36,341 nt of DNA from positions 1 to 36,341 of the forward strand of contig CAYYDH010000002.1 of NCBI GenBank assembly GCA_964470615.1. Direction: 5' to 3'. The position numbers were made by a program, and so were the translations under genes. This document shows, one piece after another, positions 2-26,767 of this stretch (its first letter is position 1; the number at the start of each line of letters is the position of its first letter). The notes under the pieces are model-generated. The model had not been told where the DNA came from, did not search any database, and was given only the letters and a program-made list of their open reading frames with translations. The stretch is from an uncultured Candidatus Saccharibacteria bacterium. Its GTDB lineage: Bacteria; Patescibacteriota; Minisyncoccia; Minisyncoccales; GWA2-38-27.

Positions 2-3000
2 ACCTATGTTGATAACATCGCTGATGCGGATTTAACTGGAACAGCGACAGAGGGATTTTGGAGACCCAATACGACAAATTCCGTATTCTTGGTTGACGGA
101 GTTTCGGCGGCAGTTATAAGCGACAGGGCGACCGTGTTCGGTGCGGGTGCAAAGGCGGGGCTTCAAGGAGTTGCTTTTGGACAAACCGCAGGAGCAGCCT
201 TAACCACAGGGGCATTAAACACTTTGATAGGAAACGGCACGGGCGACCAACTGACAACAGGAGGCTCAAATACCTATGTAGGCGACAATGCGGGTGGGCA
301 AGTAGTAGCAACAATCTCAAGTTGCACAGGTGTTGGAAGAAATGCCTTATATGCTACAGGTAGTTATAGTGTTGGCGTAGGATATTTATCTGCTGGATAT
401 AGCACAGGAATTGCCAATACTGCAATAGGTTATCAGGCAGGGCAAGGTGTAAGTGCAACAAGTAATTTTACCTATTCCACGTTTCTTGGATATAGGGCCG
501 GAAAAGAGTTTACAACTGGCGACAGGGCAATTTATATAGGTTCTAATGCCGGATATTACCAAACCACCGCCAATGACATACTGCTTATAGGAAATCAAGA
601 CTATGGTAACGCCGCAACAGAGCTGACTAACTCTATTATCTATGGGGTTATGGCAGCTACGCCTGCAAGTCAAAGCATAACTTTTAATGTTGGAAGCGCT
701 GATTTTGGAGCGGGCAACCTCACCACCACAGGCACAGGAACATTCAACAGCGTTAATATCGGCGGTGCGGCGACATTTCCTTTATATATTACAGCTACAT
801 CATCAACAGATAACTATGGCAGGATGGCAGACATAGTAAGGACAAATTTTGACTTGTCAGGTGGATATACCCAATATGCTGTTGACATACTCGCAAGAGC
901 TACAACTGGCGGCTCAAGAGGGATGTATGCTCTTAGTTTCCAATCAGGGTATTACGGAGCAGAAGCACAAACAGGAAGTATTTCTGGTATATATGGTCAG
1001 GTTTATAATGCAGGAACGGGTGATACGGGGACATCAGCGGCAATAGCAGGAAGGGTATATCTTGACGCCAATAGTCCTACAGTAGCAGGAACTTACTATG
1101 GACTTCAAACTGGCGGATATATTGTCAACACCAAAACAGGAACAGTTACCACTTATGTGGGACACAGGGACGGCGGTATAAACGCAGAAGATGGAACAGT
1201 AACAAATGCCTACAATATACAGACAGGCGCTCATACAGTAGACGGCGGCACTCTTACAAACGCTTATGGAGTTTATATAGGAAATCAAACAAACGCCACG
1301 ACAAGGAATATGGGTCTTGTATTATATGGAGATACCGATGTTTCCTCCAGATTAACCAGTGGAGCGGCAATAGTATTTGGTGCAGGATTTGATGCGGCGA
1401 TAGGATATGACGGGACAAATCTTGTTATAAATCCCTCACTTGTAGGAACTGGGAATTTGATAATCGGGACAGGAAAGGCGGCAACGGACTATTCCTTAAC
1501 CTTTGATGGTGAAACAAACGACGGTGTCTTTACTTGGATGGAAGACGAAGACTACTTCCAATTCTCTGACGATATCTTAATGAGCTCTGCTGAGAACATC
1601 TACTTTAGAGATACAGCTATCTCCATTAACTCTGCTGACGACGGACACATCGATTTTACAGCAGACGTAAGCGTTGACTTTAATACCCCATTATTGGCGC
1701 TTGGCTCTGCTGGTCTGACCACCACCGGTAGCATAACAGCCGGAGATATGCAGATAACAGGTACAGGAGTTTTCTCAAAGATACAAATAGACCAGGCTGA
1801 TGTCTATCTCGATAAAGACGGGTCAAACAACCTTATCTTTTCTGATCCTGTGACTGGGACCAAGACATTGGCCCAATTAGCAGCTGGAGGGGGCGGAACT
1901 CCGGGAGGAGATTCTGGAGATATTCAGTATAATAACGGAGGCTCATTCGGCGGATTCGGGGACTGGAACGGGACAACGCTTGATTTGGGCTCAGGCAATC
2001 TGACCACCACCGGTAGCATAACAGCCGGAGATATGCAGATAACAGGTACAGGAGTTTTCTCAAAGATACAAATAGACCAGGCTGATGTCTATCTCGATAA
2101 AGACGGGTCAAACAACCTTATCTTTTCTGATCCTGTGACTGGGACCAAGACACTAGCTGAGCTATCTACTGGAGGAGGCGGGACGCCAGGAGGCTCAGAT
2201 GGTCAGATTCAATATAACAACGGAGGTTCATTCGGAGGAGCTGCTCAGCTTTACTACAGCGATGGCGATAATAGAGTCGGCATAGGGACAGACAGTCCTG
2301 CCGGCACCTTAGACATTAGGGGTACATTAATCGTTGGAGTTGATGATACCGGCCAAGATGTTACTTTTTACGGCGCTACCAGCGGCAGCTATTTCCTTTG
2401 GGATGAAGACCAAGACCAGCTGAGATTGACTCGCAACAGCCACTATCTTTCGCTGTATTATGATGGGACGAACGGTATAATCACTACTGATTCTGGATGG
2501 TTAGAGCTTTCTGGCGCAGGAGGCAATGATGTGTATTTCTTTGACGGAGACGATGTCGGGGAAAACTACGAAGTAAGAGTTTACGGATACATCACAGCAA
2601 CCACTGGAGCGAGCTTTGCTGCTTTTAATCTTGATGATACTAATGATGAGTTTTTGATTGATGTGGCAGATGGTGATGGCAGCACCACTTTGGATGTGGC
2701 TATTAAACTTGATGACACCGGAGGCAGTTCTGTATTTAGAATAAGGGATTCTGCCGGAACAGAGGTTTTTTACGTGGATTCTGATGGATACGCCACAATG
2801 GTCGGTAGCACCGCCAAAACCTTAGTGACAAGAACAAAAGCTGGAGCTGCAAACGAGTCCGACGCAGATGGCGCATTAGTCGTAGATTCTACTAATGGTA
2901 GACTTTATTTCCGCTATGGCAGTGCCTGGCATTATACCAGTCAGACAGCTGGTTTCGAAATCCCGGCCTTTGAAAAAACAGATCCCATTTCAGGGGAGCA

Positions 3001-3682
3001 GATTGAAGTAGGTGATTTTGTGCTAGGCATGGTTAACGACACTTTTTCTGATGGCGCTCGTCACGGTGTATGGGTGAAATGGGATAACGTTAAACAAGAA
3101 TTAATAAAAGAGGTAAGCGGAGGAATATCCCTTGAGATGCTTAGCGGAGAAATGGGACAGGTCACAGAGGGTGATGAAGAAATAGTCGGAGAAACTGGAT
3201 TTGCGTCTTTGGTAAGAAGGGTTTTAGAAAAGCTAGGGCTGTTTGTCCAAGGGGGTATTGCTCAAGCCAAAGAGTTTATCGCCAAAACAATAACAGTCAA
3301 GACAGCCAAGATCGAAAAGATAGAAATGACAGACGCTATAACGGGCGAAGCCTATTGCGCTTGGATTGAAAGAGGAGAGTGGAAAAAAGTGAAGGCAAGT
3401 TGCGACCGGGTAAGATACGTCGATGGGCTAGTAGTTATTGATGGCGAAATCCCAGAAGGAAGTGATGATATCAAGGGCTGTATGGATTCTTACGCCTCGA
3501 ATTATAATCCAGAGGCCACCAAAGATGATGGTTCTTGTCGATATCCTGTTCCAACTCCCACTCCTACTCCAACTCCTGTCCCAACTCCCACTCCAACTCC
3601 AACTCCCACTCCTACTCCTACTCCAACTCCTGTCCCAACTCCGGATCCCGAGCCTGAACCAGAACCAATTCCTGAAGCTTAA
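2..3682 (+). CDS. Large Gly/Thr/Ala-rich surface repeat protein, 5'-truncated by the window edge (tail-fibre-like / adhesin-like, C-terminal Pro-Thr/Pro-Glu tract)
   Basis: The frame of the 89..3682 ORF stays open back to nt 2 ([29 protein letters not shown] precedes the TTG at 89), so the gene probably starts upstream of the window. It has N-terminal degenerate NTxIGxxAG-type repeats, G-GNLTTTG-x-T motifs and GGGTPGG[12 protein letters not shown] motifs. A 95-aa tandem duplication is present. [24 protein letters not shown] Cys motif is followed by [16 protein letters not shown]...[11 protein letters not shown] and the stop at 3680-3682. Confidence 0.85.
200..620 (+). repeat. Degenerate ~14-aa coding repeats ([10 protein letters not shown] / [10 protein letters not shown] / [10 protein letters not shown] / NTAIGYQAG / TFLGYRAG / IYIGSNAG / LLIGNQDYG)
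   Basis: A recurrent hydrophobic-x-I/V-G-x-x-A-G pattern shows in the translated ORF. It resembles repeats of trimeric-adhesin heads and phage fibres. Boundaries are approximate. Confidence 0.5.
1700..2269 (+). repeat. In-frame 2 x 285-bp (95-aa) tandem duplication with a 154-bp perfectly identical core
   Basis: nt 1714-1867 are identical base-for-base to nt 1999-2152 (checked by hand). The core encodes [51 protein letters not shown]. The flanks of each unit are homologous but clearly diverged. Confidence 0.95.
3545..3679 (+). repeat. Low-complexity (ACTCCN)n-like tract encoding the PT/PV/PE terminal linker
   Basis: The DNA reads cctgttccaactcccactcctactccaactcctgtcccaactccc... and contains an internal near-duplication. 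It translates to [45 protein letters not shown]. Confidence 0.9.
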
Positions 3683-3711
3683 TCAGTTTAATAATAATTT
3701 ACAAATTACCA

Positions 3712-4329
3712 ATGATATTAGTTAAAACAAAAAAAGAAAGGATAAAATTGGCTGTTTTGGTTATAACCGCCTTAATCATCGGGACAATAGTTGTCGGGTA
3801 TTTGATCAGAGGAGAGAATCCTAAAAAACAGGAACCTAACGCAAAAGAGAAATTAGAACAGATGAATTCTCAAACAGGTGAGATATCGGTTGTCCAAGGG
3901 GAGGAAATAAACAAAGAATACTCTTTTAAGGATTTTACCGGAAAATCTTTAAGAGATATCCCAGTTGAAGAGCTTAATAGCAGCATAATAATGGGCAGCT
4001 GTTTTTATCAAGAGAATAAACCCAATACTAAAGTGTTTCCTGATAATATGAGAGGGGTTGTTTTTAAAAGATGCAATCTTGATAACGCGTATATTCCTCC
4101 TGGAAACATGGTTGTTCTTGAGGGAGCAGATAAGTGCAGCAACAAAAACCTCAAAGAGCAGAATGACTGGGAAATGTGGATTGTTGATGGAAATATGAAT
4201 CCCATAGAGCCATTGGACAAAGAAGATAGAATAGCAGCAGGAGTAAGCATAGATCCAAAAGATATTCCCGCTAGAAGGTTTACCGAAGAAGAAAGAAGAA
4301 AGTTTGACGAAAAATTACTTGGACTATGA
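3712..4329 (+). CDS. Small N-terminally membrane-anchored protein of unknown function
   Basis: The 205-aa ORF has one N-terminal TM helix (LAVLVITALIIGTIVVGYLI), then a charged linker. A Cys-containing domain follows with weak pentapeptide-repeat-like periodicity (FKDFTGKSLRD...GSCFYQE...VVFKRCNLDNAYIP). Its stop overlaps the next start (ATGA at 4326-4329). Confidence 0.7.
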   Translation: MILVKTKKERIKLAVLVITALIIGTIVVGYLIRGENPKKQEPNAKEKLEQMNSQTGEISVVQGEEINKEYSFKDFTGKSLRDIPVEELNSSIIMGSCFYQENKPNTKVFPDNMRGVVFKRCNLDNAYIPPGNMVVLEGADKCSNKNLKEQNDWEMWIVDGNMNPIEPLDKEDRIAAGVSIDPKDIPARRFTEEERRKFDEKLLGL

Positions 4330-5726
4330 AAATAAATAAAATAATAATTATTCTATCAGTTGTCCTTTTCTTCTCCCCCATCCTCGCCAGGGCTGCAATT
4401 GCTGACAACACTGTCTGGGAGTTCAGGGCGACAGGAAGCAATAACAACGGAGGAGGATTCTACAACAGGAATCCTGGGACAAGCGTTGACTATTCCCAGC
4501 AAGACGCAGCCCAGCTTAATTTAACTAACTTAGCAACAAATGGAGCAGGAACAGGATTAAGCTCAGTCACAGGAGGGTTTACTGCTGCTATGGTAGGAAA
4601 CATCATCAATATCACAGCTGGAACAGGCTTTACCCCTGGCTGGTACGAAATCACAGCCTATGCAGATACCAACAACGTGACAATAGATAGAAGCGCTGGA
4701 GCCAGCGCCTCTTCTGGCACAGGATACATTGGAGGGGCCAGGGCTGTTCCCACTGACGCTTTCTTTGAACAGCTGACAGCAGGAAACATAGTATATTTTA
4801 AGATAGGGACTTATACGTTGACAGAGAATATTATAACTGCGTCTACCGTAGGTACTGCTGCTGATCCTGTTGTTGTTGAAGGATATAACTCCGCAAGGGG
4901 AGACAACCCCACAGGAGACAATAGGCCCACGATTGTTGCTAGTACTTATGACTGGCGATTTGTTGGGTCAGGTAATAATACCTATATGACCTTCCGCAAT
5001 CTAATAGTAACTAGCATTAACTCAAATGGTGCTTTTTACCTTTATGCCTACGCTACTGTAGAGAATTGCAAGGCGATCCAAAGCAGTGCTTCGGCCTACA
5101 ACGCTTTTTATATTGCTAGTGGGTTTGTCAAGATAATAAACTCTGAAGCAGTATCGACAAACGGGAACGCTATCGATGCTCGTGGTTACTCCGAGATTAT
5201 AGGATGCTACATACACGATAGTAGCGTAGGAATCTATACTTACGGCAGCGTCATCCTTATTCTCCACAACATTATTGATACCTGTACGACAGGGATATAC
5301 GGGGGTGATACAAATTATTTTAATAAAGCGGTTATGAATAATACAATATATAATTGCACTACAGGAATATCGGTGACAGTTGCTGAGCGGGGTTGGCTAG
5401 TTGCAAACAACATTATAGATTCTTGTACTACAGGGGCAAGTTGGAGTAGTGAGGTAAAGAATAGTTGGTGGGATTATAACAACTGGCATAACAACGGTAC
5501 TGATGTTTCAAATGTAACAAAAGGAGATAATGCCTTAGCTTTAGACCCTCAATTCACTGACGCTGCCAACGGCGATTTCTCAATTGGGACCAATCTTAAA
5601 GCTCAGGGGTTTTTAGGCGTTTTTCCAGGTTCCTTGTCGACAGGATACCTTGATGTCGGGGCTGCCCAGAGACAGGAGCCCGGCATTCCGGGAATTAAAA
5701 TAAAGGGAGGAGTTAAAATAAAATAA
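4326..5726 (+). CDS. Secreted right-handed parallel beta-helix repeat protein (pectate-lyase-fold / tailspike-like)
   Basis: It has a Sec-type signal peptide (MKINKIIIILSVVLFFSPILARA-AIA). Reiterated PbH1-like rungs are present: NIIDTCTTGIYGG, NTIYNCTTGISVT, NNIIDSCTTGASW. The C-terminal motif DPQFTDAANGDFSIGTNLKAQG is typical of this family. Confidence 0.85.
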   Translation: MKINKIIIILSVVLFFSPILARAAIADNTVWEFRATGSNNNGGGFYNRNPGTSVDYSQQDAAQLNLTNLATNGAGTGLSSVTGGFTAAMVGNIINITAGTGFTPGWYEITAYADTNNVTIDRSAGASASSGTGYIGGARAVPTDAFFEQLTAGNIVYFKIGTYTLTENIITASTVGTAADPVVVEGYNSARGDNPTGDNRPTIVASTYDWRFVGSGNNTYMTFRNLIVTSINSNGAFYLYAYATVENCKAIQSSASAYNAFYIASGFVKIINSEAVSTNGNAIDARGYSEIIGCYIHDSSVGIYTYGSVILILHNIIDTCTTGIYGGDTNYFNKAVMNNTIYNCTTGISVTVAERGWLVANNIIDSCTTGASWSSEVKNSWWDYNNWHNNGTDVSNVTKGDNALALDPQFTDAANGDFSIGTNLKAQGFLGVFPGSLSTGYLDVGAAQRQEPGIPGIKIKGGVKIK

Positions 5727-5731
5727 AAAGG

Positions 5732-5759
5732 TTGATTTTCTAGGATAATAAATTAAAAT
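5732..5759 (+). promoter_or_regulatory. Possible sigma70-type promoter TTGATT-16-TAAAAT
   Basis: The hexamers were read directly, about 29 nt upstream of the ATG at 5788. The AT-rich context makes chance matches likely. Confidence 0.3.
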
Positions 5760-5787
5760 AATAAAGTATAACTAGTAAAATAAAAAC

Positions 5788-8169
5788 ATGAAAAAAACAT
5801 CTTCTCGGGCCATGGAAATCTGCGAAAAGATTTCAAAGTACAGTATCTACGTTTTAGTGTTTCTTTTGCCTCTTTTCTTTTTACCTTGGACAGCAAATGT
5901 CCTTGATTTCAACAAGCAGCTGTTGCTTATGGTTTTGGTTTTAGTTTCCTTTTTTGCCTGGTGGTTAAGGATTCTAATGGCAGGAGAGTTTAGCTTTAAG
6001 ATAAGCTTAGTTAACTTGGCTCTTGCCGTCTTATTCTTAATTTATCTCTTAGCAACTATTTTCTCTTTGTGGGGATACGGAAGTTTCTGGGGCTTGCCTT
6101 TGAGCGCCTCTGATAGTCTGCTTACTTTGTTATGCTTGGCCATATTCTACCTTGTGCTGGTTAATGTTTTGGAAAAGAAAGAGATCTTTTATTCTTTTCT
6201 GGTGCTTACTGTTTCCGGGCTTTTGGCAATTGCTTTCGGAGTAGCTCAACTTTTCGGAAGATTCCTGCTTCCTTTTGATTTTGCTAAGACAGCTTCCTTC
6301 AACACGATTGGTTCTGTCAACAGCTTAAGTCTGTTCGCGGCTGTTCTGCTTCCCTTGATTATCAGCTTTATCATTAATACCAAGAAGCTGTTAAGGATAG
6401 CTTTTATCGTTTCTGCTGTTTTAAGCGCGCTATTGCTTATTTTAGTCAACTTTTCTATTGCTTGGTGGATTGCGATGATAGGATCTGCCTTGATAATCGT
6501 TTGCGGGACCCAGAGAAGAGAATTTTTTGATAACCGCTGGCTTATTCTGCCAATGTTTTTCTTAGCCTTGGGATTGTTTTTCGGATTTTTCAAGTTCCAG
6601 ATTCCGGGCCTTCCTGCCAGGCCGATTGAAGTTTACTTGAACCAGAAGACCAGCCTATCGATTGGCTGGGAGGCGGTTAAGGCAAGGCCTATTTTAGGTT
6701 CAGGACCTGGTACGTTTGTTTATGATTTTTCTAAGTACAAGAGCTCCGAGTTAAATCAGGGAATATTCTGGAATATAAGGTTTGATTCGCCTTCGTCAAA
6801 GATTGTCAATATTTTGGCGACAACAGGAGTGTTGGGGCTACTTTCTTTTTTAGCCTTGATCGGCCTTTTTATTCTTGAGGGATTGAAATATCTTTTTGGT
6901 ATCTCCATACTGAAGAAAGACCAGGAAGATCAAGCCCCCTCTATTAACGAGCCAATATGGTGGAATTTTGGTTTGGGTATTTTCTCTAGCTTTGTAGCAT
7001 TAACTATCGCCTATTTCATCTATTCGTCCAACCTGACAATGGGCTTTCTCTTTTTCTTGCTCTTAGGAGGTTTTATCTCCATTTTTGCTGCAAAGAAAAA
7101 AGAGTTTACCCTAGAATCATCTTCTTGGCTTACCCTGACTGTTACCTTTGTCTTTACTCTGGTGTTTATCTTTGGTTTGGGCCTTTTTATTCTTGAAGGA
7201 CAAAGATACATAGCTGAAATATTTTATCTTAAAGGAGCTCGGGCTTGGCAAGAGCAAAAGAGCGAAGAAAGCCTTAGTTATCTGGAGGGAGCGATAAGAA
7301 AGAACTCTAAAATGGATTTGTATTGGAGAGAATTATCGCAGATTTACCTCCAAGAGTTGGATAAAGAAGCTAGAAGAACAGATATATCAAAAGAAGAGGT
7401 GAGCCAGATAGCTCAGACAATCATTAACAGCGCGGTAACAGCGGCAAAGAACGCCACTGATTTGAACCCCAGCAATGTTGCCAATTGGTCAGTAAGAGGC
7501 CTTGTTTACCAAAATTTGATTGGGATAGTCGGAGGGATACAAGATTGGACTTCAGATATATATGATGAAGCGATAAAGTTGGAACCGACAAGCCCTTATT
7601 TCCCGACCCAAAAAGGGATTGCTCTCCGTCAAGCTGCTTTTCTTGAAGGGGTTAAGGAAAGCGAAAAAAACTCTTTGCTCGCTGGCGCTAAGGCGCAATT
7701 TGACAGGGCGATTGAGCTGAAATCAGATTATGCTCCCGCTCATTTCCAGATTGCGATGACCTATCAGGCGCAGGGCAAGCAGAAAGAAGCAATTACTAAA
7801 CTGGAAGAAACAAAGAAAATAGCTTCAGCTAACGATATTGGATTGGCCTTCCAATTGGGATTGCTCTATTATCAGTCCAAAGACTATACTTCAGCTAAAA
7901 CAGAGCTGGAGAGAGCAGTCAGCATTAATCCCAACTACTCTAATGCCCTTTATTTCCTAGGGTTAGCCTATGACCAATTAGGACAAAGGCAAAAGGCAAT
8001 TGATGCTTTCCAGAAAGTAGTGGATTTGAATAAGGACAATACCGAGGTCAAGAGCATTCTGTCTAATCTAAAAGCAGGGAAAGCAGCTCTAGACGGCCTT
8101 ACTCCGCAAACAGACACGGTTCCCATAGAAGAGAACCAGCCAGGGGTTAAAACCGGAAACGAAGATTAA
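5788..8169 (+). CDS. O-antigen ligase family (Wzy_C-like) polytopic membrane protein fused to C-terminal TPR repeats
   Basis: About 480 aa contain many TM helices and the loop motif ARPILGSGPGTFVYDF typical of the WaaL/Wzy_C family. At least 4 TPR-like units follow (SDYAPAHFQIAMTYQAQGKQKEAI..., NPNYSNALYFLGLAYDQLGQRQKAIDAFQKVVDLNKDN). Confidence 0.85.
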   Translation: MKKTSSRAMEICEKISKYSIYVLVFLLPLFFLPWTANVLDFNKQLLLMVLVLVSFFAWWLRILMAGEFSFKISLVNLALAVLFLIYLLATIFSLWGYGSFWGLPLSASDSLLTLLCLAIFYLVLVNVLEKKEIFYSFLVLTVSGLLAIAFGVAQLFGRFLLPFDFAKTASFNTIGSVNSLSLFAAVLLPLIISFIINTKKLLRIAFIVSAVLSALLLILVNFSIAWWIAMIGSALIIVCGTQRREFFDNRWLILPMFFLALGLFFGFFKFQIPGLPARPIEVYLNQKTSLSIGWEAVKARPILGSGPGTFVYDFSKYKSSELNQGIFWNIRFDSPSSKIVNILATTGVLGLLSFLALIGLFILEGLKYLFGISILKKDQEDQAPSINEPIWWNFGLGIFSSFVALTIAYFIYSSNLTMGFLFFLLLGGFISIFAAKKKEFTLESSSWLTLTVTFVFTLVFIFGLGLFILEGQRYIAEIFYLKGARAWQEQKSEESLSYLEGAIRKNSKMDLYWRELSQIYLQELDKEARRTDISKEEVSQIAQTIINSAVTAAKNATDLNPSNVANWSVRGLVYQNLIGIVGGIQDWTSDIYDEAIKLEPTSPYFPTQKGIALRQAAFLEGVKESEKNSLLAGAKAQFDRAIELKSDYAPAHFQIAMTYQAQGKQKEAITKLEETKKIASANDIGLAFQLGLLYYQSKDYTSAKTELERAVSINPNYSNALYFLGLAYDQLGQRQKAIDAFQKVVDLNKDNTEVKSILSNLKAGKAALDGLTPQTDTVPIEENQPGVKTGNED

Positions 8170-8204: not shown

Positions 8205-8233
8205 TTGACAGGGTTTCAAGGAAAGGTTAGAAT
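8205..8233 (+). promoter_or_regulatory. Promoter TTGACA-17-TAGAAT upstream of rpoB
   Basis: The consensus -35 (8205-8210) and a good -10 (8228-8233) have a 17-nt spacer. This implies a ~140-nt leader. Confidence 0.6.
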
Positions 8234-23973: not shown

Positions 23974-24555
23974 TTATTTCAAAGAATCCAAGTTTTGAGG
24001 GATTTCTTTAAGGGAGCTTTCAAAGCGCAGTTCAGGAACCTCCTTATAATTCTCATTTTTTACCCAACCATTTTCCGTATAGTAATAGCAGGCGCCTTGC
24101 AAGCTTTCAAAAAGCGAGAAGTCGTTCCGGCAGTTTTTACAAATCCAATTAGCCATTTTGAGATCTTTTTCTGAGGGGTTGATAGTTACGTGGCCGTAAC
24201 CCGATGGGATAAGCGCGGCTTCGCCTTTTTTTGCTTTGATGGCGCAGACATCAGCAATTTTATTTTCGTCGCCTTTTTGCATCAAATAAATCGCTTCGCC
24301 TTCTAAAACTATATATAATTCGCCGTAGCTTTCAGTGTGGTTGTGCCCCTTTGTTTTAACAAACTCTTGGCCAAGCTTTCTAGCCGGGATAACAGTAATA
24401 TCGTATCTTAGGCCTTCTTTTTCTTCTAGCCCCCTATACATATAGTATAACTCAAGGTCTGGGGTTTTTCCCGCCCATTCCTGGTCGTACAAAACCGTCT
24501 TCATATCGCTTAGCTTCCTTATGCCAGGAGTTTTATTTTTTAGATCTATTTCCAT
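23974..24555 (-). CDS. pgi: Cupin-type (archaeal-type) glucose-6-phosphate isomerase
   Basis: The 193-aa protein has the cupin metal motifs TKGHNHTESYGELYIVLEGEA and IPSGYGHVTIN. Size and motif spacing match the cPGI family (Pfam GPI, PF06560), by recollection. Confidence 0.78.
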   Translation of the reverse strand: MEIDLKNKTPGIRKLSDMKTVLYDQEWAGKTPDLELYYMYRGLEEKEGLRYDITVIPARKLGQEFVKTKGHNHTESYGELYIVLEGEAIYLMQKGDENKIADVCAIKAKKGEAALIPSGYGHVTINPSEKDLKMANWICKNCRNDFSLFESLQGACYYYTENGWVKNENYKEVPELRFESSLKEIPQNLDSLK

Positions 24556-26540
24556 ACTCTTTTAGTTTTTATATACCAATTCTCAATTCCGGTGAAGCGC
24601 CTTGAAGGATCAGCTATTTCCTTAGCATCTATTCCTTTTATCTCGTTTGAAACGGAATAGATGTAAGACGGGCTGTAAAGAAATACTGCCGGGGCGTCGC
24701 TAATCAAGATATCCTGCAATTCAGCTAGTTTTTCATTGCGGGTTTTTTCATCCGACGTTTTTCTTATCGTTTCCAACAGTTCGTCAACTTTTTGGTTTTC
24801 GTAACCTGCTAAATTAAGACCCGGGTCTTTTTTCTGCGAGGAGTGCCAGAAGGGAAGAGGATCAGGTATAGCGCCCAATATTTCTCCGAAAAGAAGGATA
24901 TCGTAATTTCTCGGCTTGATAAAATCTTGTTCAATCTGGGTGCCAGATAACTTTTTGATTTCAAGCCTTACCCCGACTGCTTCCCACTGCTTTTTTAATG
25001 CTTCAGCTGCTTTGATCAATTGCGGTTGGTCTACGGTAATAAGGGAAAAGCTGAGAAGAGATGTTTCTGGAGAAGACTTGAAACAGACTTGGCTCAGCTT
25101 TTTTCTGGTGTTTTCTCCTACTACGCCGTTGCCGTTTTTAAACCCAGATGGCTCCAGTATTTCTTCAGCATACTTTTCCTGAAACTTTATAACCGCTTCT
25201 TTGGTTTTAGGCCCGAAATAGTTAGTCACTTCGCCGTTAGGATAAATGTCTAGGAAGGTAGCTAGGCACTTCTGGAGTTCGCCTACTTCCACTCCTTGGG
25301 AATCCTGCTTTAGGTTGCTTTTGAACTGGAAGGCCGGATCCTTTTTGACAACCTTTTCTCTTACGCCGTCTTGGTCTTGATCTTGGAATCCAGCTTTATC
25401 CAAAATATCTTTTGCCTGGTCTATATTATACTCGTAAACCTTGGAAGGGGCGGGCAAGCCGTAAACCTCTGGCAAGACAGGAGAATCAACGATTAGGGAG
25501 TTTTCTTCGCCAAACTCCAAGACCGTTCCGGCAATTTCATTTTTATCCGTCGCGTAGTTTAAAGCAATTCTTATTTGCTTATCAGCTAAAATGTCTGATT
25601 TAGCTAGATTGAAAAACACAGCAAAGTATCGCGGGAAGCGCAGATAATAATTTTGCCAGTTGCTATTCTCGGTCGGGCTGTTGGTTGACCAGCCCATTAT
25701 CTTTCCGTTCTTTGCCGCTTTCTCTAGTTCTTTTTCGTCATTGAAAAAAAGGAACTTTATCTTGGTAATATTGGGGCTTTTGCCAGAATAGTCTGAGCTT
25801 GAAGAAAGAGTCACCGAGCTTATATAGTCCGGTTTCTTCTGTTCTATGTCAACCAATCGGTAGGGACCTGATCCGACCGGCCTTAAGTTATAAATGGACA
25901 GATGAAAGCTTTGGGACGGGATGTTTTCCCAAATATGCTTTGGCAGTATCTTAAGAGTGCAGTTTTCCAAAAAAGCGCTATACGGTTTCTTCAATTTTAA
26001 CCTGAGTTCCCAATCGCTTATCTTTTCAGCTTCTACACCTACCCAGCTGGCTTGCAAGGGGCTTTTAAATTCCGGATTCTGGATTGTTTTTATCGTAAAG
26101 ATAACGTCGTCGGAAGTGAGAGGATACTTGTCTTGCCAGAGCAGGTCTTTTTTGAGGGTAAATTTGTAGCTTCTTCCGTCCTCCTCTATCTCATATTTTT
26201 CAACCAAGTCCGGCACTACCCGCATTTTTTCATCGTATTTCATCAAGCCGGCGAATATAAGCTGAACTAGGTCGCGGTCAGCATCAGAATTAGCATAGAT
26301 TGGATTAATGAAGCCTGGCTGTCCGATCAGCCCCTCTACGTAAGTTCCTCCGCGGCTGGGAACGGGCTTGGTATTTTGAAGATAGAAGGTCGAACAGATA
26401 AAAATCAGCGAAGAGAGAAAAAGAACAAAGAATGCGCCGAAAACAATCTTTTCTTTCCGGCTCAAAACCTTGAAAAGTTGGACCCATTGCTTCTTGCTGG
26501 GCCATTTCTCTGCCTTAAAGAGAAAATTCTCGATTATCAT
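24546..26540 (-). CDS. Membrane-anchored family-5 (peptide/nickel-type) solute-binding protein with an embedded peptidoglycan-binding domain
   Basis: An N-terminal TM anchor (IVFGAFFVLFLSSLIFICSTFYL) is present. SBP_bac_5-like blocks include GGTYVEGLIGQPGFINP, LMKYDEKMRVVPDLVEKYEIEEDGRSYKFTLKKDLLWQD and GSGPYRL. A PG_binding_1-like insert (GVEVGELQKCLATFL...YFGPKTKEAVIKFQEKY...VVGENTRKKL) lies at about nt 25095-25318. The start is set at the ATG at 26540, because the track's 26612 start would overlap secG. Confidence 0.85.
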   Translation of the reverse strand: MIIENFLFKAEKWPSKKQWVQLFKVLSRKEKIVFGAFFVLFLSSLIFICSTFYLQNTKPVPSRGGTYVEGLIGQPGFINPIYANSDADRDLVQLIFAGLMKYDEKMRVVPDLVEKYEIEEDGRSYKFTLKKDLLWQDKYPLTSDDVIFTIKTIQNPEFKSPLQASWVGVEAEKISDWELRLKLKKPYSAFLENCTLKILPKHIWENIPSQSFHLSIYNLRPVGSGPYRLVDIEQKKPDYISSVTLSSSSDYSGKSPNITKIKFLFFNDEKELEKAAKNGKIMGWSTNSPTENSNWQNYYLRFPRYFAVFFNLAKSDILADKQIRIALNYATDKNEIAGTVLEFGEENSLIVDSPVLPEVYGLPAPSKVYEYNIDQAKDILDKAGFQDQDQDGVREKVVKKDPAFQFKSNLKQDSQGVEVGELQKCLATFLDIYPNGEVTNYFGPKTKEAVIKFQEKYAEEILEPSGFKNGNGVVGENTRKKLSQVCFKSSPETSLLSFSLITVDQPQLIKAAEALKKQWEAVGVRLEIKKLSGTQIEQDFIKPRNYDILLFGEILGAIPDPLPFWHSSQKKDPGLNLAGYENQKVDELLETIRKTSDEKTRNEKLAELQDILISDAPAVFLYSPSYIYSVSNEIKGIDAKEIADPSRRFTGIENWYIKTKRVWK

Positions 26541-26545
26541 TCTAT

Positions 26546-26767
26546 TTAAACAAGAGAAAGATTCATTACGGCCAGAATGACAAAGATGACGCCGAGAACG
26601 ATAGTAGCCCAAAATATGTATTTTTGGACGCCTCGGCGGGTAGAATAAAAGCTACCACCGTCACCTCCAAAAGCGCCGCCTAAAGCAGTGCCTCTTTGCT
26701 GAAAGAGAATAAGCGCCACAATAGATATAGCAATCACTATTTGAGCAATTGGTAAAATTGTTTCCAT
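26546..26767 (-). CDS. secG: Preprotein translocase subunit SecG
   Basis: The 73-aa protein has two TM helices around a Gly-rich loop (LFQQRGTALGGAFGGDGGSFYSTRRG). Confidence 0.85.
   Translation of the reverse strand: METILPIAQIVIAISIVALILFQQRGTALGGAFGGDGGSFYSTRRGVQKYIFWATIVLGVIFVILAVMNLSLV

Follow-up and report, generated by a model that had tools for sequence, protein, structure and literature searches.

A probable mosaic of fibre, phage-type and backbone genes upstream of rpoBC in a Patescibacterial genome

Proteins of three known kinds, a depolymerase-like beta-helix protein, a fibre adhesin and a Wzy_C membrane enzyme, have their counterparts in the block of four genes considered here. 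The block (genes P1 to P4, in their order) opens a contig of 36,341 nucleotides, hereafter the window, which comes from a bacterium recorded as an uncultured Candidatus Saccharibacteria (CAYYDH010000002.1, assembly GCA_964470615.1); L-numbers denote the loci or contigs, and P0-numbers the homologous proteins, with which it was compared. Right-handed beta-helices occur in phage depolymerases such as S2-4 of Klebsiella phage K64-1, a K1-specific lyase and gp49 of Pseudomonas phage LKA1, and P3 has this fold too, as do bacterial PL6/PL9 lyases (BcAlyPL6, Pel9A); the identity of P3 to any solved structure is at most 17%. Homologues of P3 are encoded in phage structural regions, as are the phage tailspikes and depolymerases. 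Virion tailspikes, however, are assembled without an export signal, whereas the P3 of the window has a Sec signal peptide and is paired with the small protein P2, of which we know no counterpart in characterised depolymerases. The repeats of phage tail fibres with Gly-rich repeats and S74 chaperone domains, and those of YadA-like heads, align with residues 30–240 of P1. P1 differs from these fibres and adhesins in lacking a Pfam-detectable S74, T7-fibre or YadA domain and an autotransporter anchor, and it ends instead in a cellular, lineage-specific module and a Pro-Thr tail. The Wzy_C family (PF04932) includes the WaaL O-antigen ligases and the PglL/PilO protein O-oligosaccharyltransferases. 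P4 is polytopic like the members of this family, but it matches the family model poorly, is fused to about 300 amino acids (aa) of TPR repeats, and its gene adjoins rpoBC instead of belonging to a glycan biosynthesis cluster.

A first-pass annotation of this DNA had proposed that the four genes form a self-contained glyco-adhesin system. That proposal is not supported: the four gene families were never found together in relatives, an outcome that the annotation itself had named as one that would refute it. We consider it rather likely, if well short of certain, that the block is not one system but a mosaic of three layers: the backbone gene P4, the native giant fibre gene P1, and an exported phage-type cassette of P2 and P3. 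The native fibre gene would sit in a variable slot before P4, a core envelope gene, and P2-P3 would have been inserted between the two. P1 would represent a family of giant fibres on the cell surface that is specific to the lineage, built of a variable N-terminus, a two-cysteine module of ~80 aa and a Pro/Thr/Glu/Asp-rich tail. P3 would be an extracellular glycan-binding or glycan-cleaving beta-helix protein acting together with P2, and P2 may interact physically with P3, tethering or assembling it at the membrane; beside the P1 fibre, the two could act on the surface polysaccharide of a partner cell or of the cell itself.

New in this locus are the obligate pairing of P2 and P3 with a switch between exported and non-exported forms, the lineage-specific C-terminal module of the fibre at a fixed slot, and the combination of both in a Patescibacterial chromosome. 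The partner attachment of ultra-small episymbiotic bacteria is largely unknown, and the locus supplies concrete candidates for it. One is a hypervariable family of giant fibres that share a conserved C-terminal module and whose genes keep to a fixed chromosomal slot; the other is a depolymerase-like beta-helix protein that is exported and has an obligate small partner. The P2-P3 pair is also abundant, has no described function and switches export form as a unit, which makes it a tractable target for the biology of phage receptor binding and depolymerases.

P1 (positions 2..3682), P2 (3712..4329), P3 (4326..5726) and P4 (5788..8169) are open reading frames (ORFs) that all run in one direction on the + strand, as do the features within and between them given below. 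Their coordinates bear out the spacing reported in the first-pass annotation, namely 29 nucleotides (nt), a 4-nt ATGA overlap (-4) and 61 nt. No terminator-like site was seen between the four genes on this strand, and an Rfam scan of the region returned nothing relevant. The tight spacing is that of a streamlined genome, not of an operon-encoded system, and the locus is a caution that in such genomes close co-directional packing is no proof of a functional module.

The exported P2-P3 pair

P2 and P3 make up a two-gene cassette that is found otherwise mainly in the structural regions of tailed phages, typically behind a large protein. A scan of IMG/VR returned 94 viral stretches encoding a P3 relative, and 78 loci were kept (27–50% identity). 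Of these 78 viral loci, 23 have a P2 homologue (core residues ~65–200, 32–50% identity) as the gene directly before P3. Of 63 metagenome loci with P2, 39 have a P3-type gene as the next gene downstream, and 5 more have one nearby. Hallmark genes confirm the phage identity of contigs with P2/P3 homologues, which also encode a major head protein and an internal virion protein (L086, L105), a T4 neck protein and a GH108 lysozyme (L165), a Mu F protein and a prohead protease (L166), or a P22-type portal and a capsid (L169). The order of large protein, P2-like gene and P3-like gene, which mirrors P1-P2-P3, is seen in L105, L165 and L169, where the large protein has 1471, 859 and 933 aa, respectively. 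In 78 genomic P4 loci, which came from a scan of a genome collection, no relative of P2 or P3 was found (tblastn at E <= 1e-5; phmmer at E <= 1 on 427 upstream ORFs), and neither P4 nor rpoB was found in the 78 viral and 63 metagenomic P2/P3 loci. In one viral locus, L110 (10001–13829), a single P2-like gene is followed by three tandem P3 paralogues, 42–43% identical to P3.

The two proteins also change their export form together. Most phage copies of P2 and P3 lack a signal peptide, their first residues being those of the conserved core, and a minority has an N-terminal hydrophobic signal. Among 65 distinct P2-P3 pairs, both members carried an export signal in 14 and neither did in 51, with 0 discordant pairs (Fisher p = 1.6e-14). 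Because the signal status is always concordant, P2 and P3 are expected to work in one compartment, and this speaks for a function that they share. The pair of the window is of the exported form, with P2 anchored and P3 bearing a signal peptide. In the three phage loci examined (L086, L105, L169), the large protein before the exported pair also carries a signal peptide. Runs of three consecutive signal-peptide genes (large, P2-like, P3-like) on capsid- or portal-bearing phage contigs, here L086, L105, L108/L109 and L169, were unexpected; the large proteins of these phages have in common a C-terminal domain of ~130 aa (46–66% identity), which P1 does not have.

The closest relative of P2 is P0361 (52% identity), encoded on the short contig L168. 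This contig, from a second organism, repeats the layout of the window at ~50% identity: an upstream protein whose end is rich in Pro, Thr and Glu, then a P2 with anchor and linker, then a P3 with signal peptide. The recurrence of the trio in L168, together with the order of large protein, P2 and P3 in phages, suggests that P2 and P3 work with the upstream fibre. A different setting surrounds the closest named cellular homologue of P3 (56% identity), which stands at the start of L164 (1–11131; GCA_043811915.1). Its neighbours encode a PMT-family glycosyltransferase, Calx-beta proteins and a type IV pilus set (T2SSE, T2SSF, N_methyl pilins).

P2 is a protein of 205 aa with one N-terminal membrane anchor, and hydropathy confirmed this earlier prediction: the only hydrophobic segment spans residues 14–32, and the AlphaFold2 model (predicted local distance difference test, pLDDT, 91) places a helix at residues 7–32. 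A linker and a conserved core of ~135 aa (residues 66–200) follow, and 510 cluster representatives match the core. An alternative start at Met51, which would leave P2 with no anchor, is unlikely; P0361 and P0388 keep the N-terminal anchor and linker, and P2 and P3 share their export status. Neither Pfam nor PHROG yielded a family for P2. A Foldseek search of its model against the PDB gave nothing significant; the top matches of the core were pentapeptide-repeat proteins (MfpA, Qnr and Rfr; best E 0.45, probability <= 0.18), and 2 of 32 members of the P2 family had marginal matches to the Pfam Pentapeptide family (best E 0.029). P2 is most safely assigned to a family of its own that has yet to be described.

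P3 comprises 466 aa and had been described from its sequence as a parallel beta-helix protein of the lyase or depolymerase type with a Sec signal, a description that both its N-terminus and its predicted structure confirmed. The signal peptide (residues 1–23; hydrophobic signal residues 6–24, ARA/A site) precedes an N-terminal beta domain (~24–135) and a right-handed parallel beta-helix (~150–400). In the AlphaFold2 model (pLDDT 85; predicted template-modelling score, pTM, 0.83) the beta domain is very confident at residues ~30–135, and residues 150–400 form the helix with three strands per turn. Foldseek comparison with the PDB retrieved a PL6 alginate lyase (7dmk, E 8e-6) and Pel9A (1ru4, target-normalised TM-score 0.56), with a probability of 1.00 for the PL6/PL9 structures. 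Other matches were to chondroitinase B, Klebsiella capsule depolymerases, LKA1 gp49, the AlgG/AlgE4 epimerases and RbmB, and the best viral match was a beta-helix protein of an uncultured Caudovirales (E 3.5e-10). At the sequence level, ~1000 homologues of P3 were found at 40–56% identity, with Beta_helix, NosD, DUF5123 or Pel9A-like domains in Pfam (accessions PF13229, PF05048 and PF22842 among them); the P3 family matched nothing in PHROGs v4. Direct PDB sequence searches with P1, P2 and P3 gave low-complexity matches or none. Judged from its model, P3 appears to be a polysaccharide-lyase/depolymerase-like beta-helix protein.

The giant fibre gene P1 and the prophage alternative

P1 is open from base 2, its 5' end lies beyond the contig edge, and the 1226 aa that are visible belong to a giant Gly/Thr-rich, fibre-like protein. 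Composition (Gly 14.6%, Thr 12.2%; in the final 56 residues Pro 39% and Thr 25%) and repeat matches upheld its first description as a repeat protein of more than 1200 aa, rich in Gly and Thr, with phage-fibre-like motifs and a Pro-Thr end. As far as its sequence tells, P1 is chimeric, with a variable phage-fibre-like N-terminal part and a cellular, lineage-specific C-terminus.

The N-terminal part begins with Gly/Ala/Thr-rich repeats (residues ~30–240; 89..721) of the sort seen in large tail-fibre-like and YadA-head-like proteins. These residues match the internal repeats of 126 large proteins at 30–58% identity, and of the 120 matches listed for P1 up to 119 are restricted to this region. Many of the proteins with such N-terminal repeats carry PF13884 (Peptidase_S74), PF03906 (T7 tail fibre) or PF05658 (YadA head), and a Pfam search of P1 itself found no family, these included. 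Tandem/direct-repeat detection further identified a tandem duplication at 1703..2239 with a unit of 285 nt (95 aa) and copies 88–89% identical, and a counterpart of this unit (49–54% identity) lies just upstream of the P3-like gene in viral locus L099. A motif coding for NNGG(S/G)F occurs in both repeat copies (1929–1948 and 2214–2233) and again at 4441–4460, where it specifies the near-invariant NGGGF of the P3 N-terminal domain; this recurrence may reflect chance or a common fibre motif.

The C-terminal part leads to a different set of relatives. In 17 of 40 close relatives, its ~300 residues find a match in large ORFs that precede P4 and run in the same direction. In seven loci the giant gene runs right up to P4 (L009, L022, L026, L030, L036, L055 and L064; 583–2337 aa). 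The common core of these P1-like proteins is the ~80-aa module with two conserved cysteines, as aligned with 16 large proteins upstream of P4. In P1 it occupies residues ~1070–1152 (3209..3457), is lineage-specific, and reads LGLF..GI..KE.I..K.T.KTA.IEK.EM.D..TGE.YC.WIE.GEW.KVK..C. Low-complexity Pro/Glu, Thr/Gly/Asp or Pro/Thr tails follow the module in the relatives, and repeat detection placed a low-complexity tail, first Pro-Thr and then Pro-Glu, at 3538..3654 of the window. The Pro-Thr tract varies between samples: in L005 (JGI 3300028162, 1–230) it is at least ~100 nt longer, with identical flanks. L005 had been considered as a contig without P1; this was rejected, as it starts inside the longer tract. 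The complete relatives L055, L022 and L036 have N-terminal hydrophobic anchors, and the neighbours of the relatives are cellular, as illustrated by the complete 639-kb genome CP179888.1 (L064), in which FtsW, a 2337-aa protein, P4 and rpoB follow one another. An impression by eye that the P1-like proteins of relatives contain S74-like segments was discarded; Pfam found no family in the protein of L036 and no S74 in that of L055. Neither P1 as a query nor a 16-sequence profile detected the C-terminal region or module in 2.9 million viral contigs.

Among the alternatives, the one that survives best holds that P1, P2 and P3 are the tail-fibre or receptor-binding end of a prophage, or of a prophage remnant, lying just upstream of P4 and serving the phage rather than the cell, whether through virion or release functions or as surface proteins of lysogenic conversion. 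The first-pass annotation had itself named a prophage tail module as the alternative to its proposal, and at least half of that alternative holds true, in that P2 and P3 are phage-borne. The pair and the order of large protein, P2 and P3 are typical of phage structural regions, the N-terminal repeats of P1 resemble those of proteins with tail-fibre domains, and the repeat unit of P1 matches the protein adjoining the P3-like gene of L099. Codon usage is in line with this alternative as well: the codon-usage distance is 0.27–0.30 in P1–P3 against 0.09–0.19 in the housekeeping genes, and the GC content at third codon positions (GC3) is lower in P1–P3, at 0.34–0.40. The sequence before P1, moreover, is missing from the contig. 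P1 is also where the seven public contigs with P2 and the two with P3 all break off, and an exact 48-nt search of Joint Genome Institute (JGI) metagenomes with the first bases of the window returned no match.

Against a prophage stand the 28 kb downstream, which hold no phage hallmark gene (capsid, portal, terminase or integrase) and no attachment-type repeat. The C-terminal module family of P1 also sits at the same chromosomal slot in the 17 relatives, with cellular neighbours and N-terminal anchors, and was not found in the viral contigs. Virion proteins, furthermore, are not normally exported by Sec, yet P2 is anchored and P3 has a signal peptide, and P1 lacks the ~130-aa domain with which the large proteins preceding the exported phage pairs end. 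A prophage remnant appears unlikely, but it keeps some probability because the upstream side is missing and the codon usage of P1–P3 deviates somewhat.

P4 and the case for a single system

P4, with 793 aa, combines a membrane domain of about 12 predicted transmembrane segments with C-terminal TPR repeats (residues ~476–765; 7213–8082). The membrane domain has 837 homologues, with 47–59% identity among the 120 listed and one at 93%; most homologues have ~780–830 aa and the same architecture of membrane domain and TPR repeats, a few are shorter (~640–670 aa), and their source names are Patescibacteria, Nealsonbacteria or Parcubacteria. P4 had been annotated as a Wzy_C protein with TPR repeats. 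The TPR part stood, with strong Pfam matches. The Wzy_C part stood only as a remote relationship seen through orthologues, P4 itself scoring below the Pfam threshold: residues 211–355 (6418–6852) align with positions 3–149 of the 149 in PF04932, thereby spanning the whole model, at 10.1 bits and E 0.72, against a threshold of 31.7, and a full-length Pfam scan of P4 at E <= 0.1 did not return Wzy_C. The orthologue P0088 (52% identical, E 9.7e-161) exceeds the threshold in the same place (32.6 bits, residues 224–356), while P0102 (28.9 bits, 205–350) and L045 (26.8 bits, 209–353) come near it. The label is thus given to P4 because its orthologues pass or approach the threshold at this position, not on its own score. 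Precomputed Pfam data list PF04932 in only 2 of 120 P4 homologues, and Pfam did not detect Wzy_C in ten distant relatives.

Hydropathy divides the membrane domain of P4 into 12 segments, with a 77-residue loop (271–347) inside the Wzy_C-like region that holds the family-invariant motif GSGPGTF. An hhalign comparison of the P4 family profile with WaaL of E. coli K-12 gave a probability of 0.45% and E 0.13 over 32 columns, a weak test given a single-sequence template, and searches of PDB sequences with P4 and its family profile matched the TPR part alone. P4 may be regarded as a putative remote, divergent polytopic membrane protein of the Wzy_C family with a TPR domain, and, going by family membership only, it is most likely a general ligase or polymerase of envelope glycans or glycoproteins. 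A literature search on O-antigen ligase-TPR proteins of Patescibacteria, Nealsonbacteria adhesins and tail-fibre-like surface proteins found nothing specific.

P4 is conserved across Paceibacteria-type Patescibacteria directly before rpoB and rpoC. In 28 of the 42 close loci (P4 identity of at least 40%) with enough downstream sequence, rpoB lies at most 3 kb downstream of P4, with rpoC next. The genes upstream of P4 vary, and include FtsW/RodA, an adenylate-kinase-like gene, comFC-dprA-comM-yraN, IS200-type transposases, an AbiEii toxin and a giant ORF. Genes for the AbiEii toxin and an IS200-type Y1 transposase occupy the slot in L058 (4996–5733 and 8847–9566) and L033 (1670–2302), which suggests an insertion hot spot. 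In L032 (2829–6601), L014, L017, L011 and L058, comFC, dprA, comM and yraN separate the giant fibre gene from P4; the window has them neither at this position nor elsewhere in its 36 kb.

A promoter-like site, TTGATT-16-TAAAAT, lies in the gap between P3 and P4 (5732..5759; a consensus match only), and TTGAC(T/G)...TAAAAT elements precede P4 in L008, L011, L014, L017 and L032 too, whatever gene comes before. P4 probably has its own promoter. A second site, TTGACA-17-TAGAAT, lies before rpoB (8205..8233; 11 of 12 positions in a consensus scan) and had been taken as the end of the block. The rpoB promoter-like site is real, but P4 has one of its own and is syntenic with rpoBC, and for these two reasons P4 belongs to the conserved backbone rather than to the sole non-housekeeping block of the window, as which all four genes had been described. 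The remaining genes of the window are housekeeping genes. The view that all four proteins face the cell exterior holds for P2, P3 and P4 by their anchor, signal peptide and transmembrane segments, and is extended to P1 through the N-terminal anchors of its complete relatives.

Two proposals tie P4 to the fibre. The more elaborate supposes that an episymbiotic Patescibacterium has taken over a phage receptor-binding/depolymerase cassette, which it exports and uses with the native giant fibre P1 either for attachment to the surface glycan layer of its partner cell or for opening that layer, and that P4 glycosylates the Pro/Thr/Glu-rich tails of the fibres. Such a role of P4 would account for the repeated presence of giant-fibre genes immediately before it. 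We regard the proposal as a whole as improbable.

More doubtful still is the self-contained four-gene system, in which P4 would O-glycosylate the Pro-Thr tail of P1, and P2 and P3 would complete a glycosylated attachment fibre. The remote membership of P4 in the family that includes PglL/PilO, the co-direction of the genes with no terminator-like site between them, and the finding, only suggestive, that 17 of 40 relatives encode a P1-like protein with a tail rich in Pro, Thr and Glu before P4 speak for it. Glycosylation of the P1 tail by P4 in particular may gain a little from the recurrent adjacency of fibre and P4. P4, however, is unlikely to be dedicated to the P1 fibre because it is conserved with no such neighbour in most loci. 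On the other side, P2 and P3 were never found with P4 in the 78 genomic loci, nor P4 with P2 or P3 in the 141 viral and metagenomic loci, P4 is kept with no adjacent P1-like gene in 23 of 40 close and 24 of 26 distant loci, and it appears to have a promoter of its own.

Equally doubtful is the idea that P2 and P3 are a neutral insertion in the variable slot that processes the extracellular polysaccharide of the cell itself (an exported lyase or epimerase such as AlgL/AlgG, or an RbmB-type protein), with no relation to P1 or attachment: the P3 model matches alginate lyases, the AlgG/AlgE4 epimerases and RbmB as well as phage depolymerases, the slot accepts unrelated insertions (IS200, AbiEii, competence genes), and the close cellular homologue in L164 adjoins type IV pilus and PMT genes and no fibre gene, but the trio recurs with a Pro-rich-tailed upstream protein in L168, and the phage pair follows a large protein, itself with a signal peptide in the three exported cases (L086, L105, L169), which points to a link with a fibre.

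The mosaic of backbone P4, native fibre P1 and exported phage-type P2-P3, which we prefer, has points against it as well. The contig ends inside P1, and the N-terminus of P1, its export signal and its upstream neighbours lie beyond the edge. The deviating codon usage could mean that the whole trio P1–P3 is foreign, although the deviation is in part an effect of amino-acid composition. The signal peptides are no evidence of domestication because the exported form is also present in the true phage contigs L086, L105 and L169. That P1-like genes repeatedly adjoin P4 could reflect a functional link rather than mere synteny. Lastly, no catalytic residues were identified in P3, whose family-invariant residues include H297/D298, and any enzymatic activity of P3 is accordingly put forward here only as a possibility, as is the part of the locus in attachment.

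The rest of the window and its taxonomic label

Housekeeping genes fill the rest of the window, among them those for FtsK, RecA, a class I tRNA synthetase, PGM, RNase J, UvrC, UvrA, GroEL and PolX. Among L008–L058, many third-party annotation (TPA) records of metagenome-assembled genomes are titled Saccharibacteria and have the order P4-rpoB-rpoC, with an rpoB 74–78% identical to that of the window; the rpoB genes in Nealsonbacteria-named records are 71–79% identical to it. On these TPA records, the label 'uncultured Candidatus Saccharibacteria' looks like a generic placeholder. On the - strand, the window further encodes (24549–26612) a family-5 solute-binding protein of 688 aa with an internal PG_binding_1 domain, an unusual combination.

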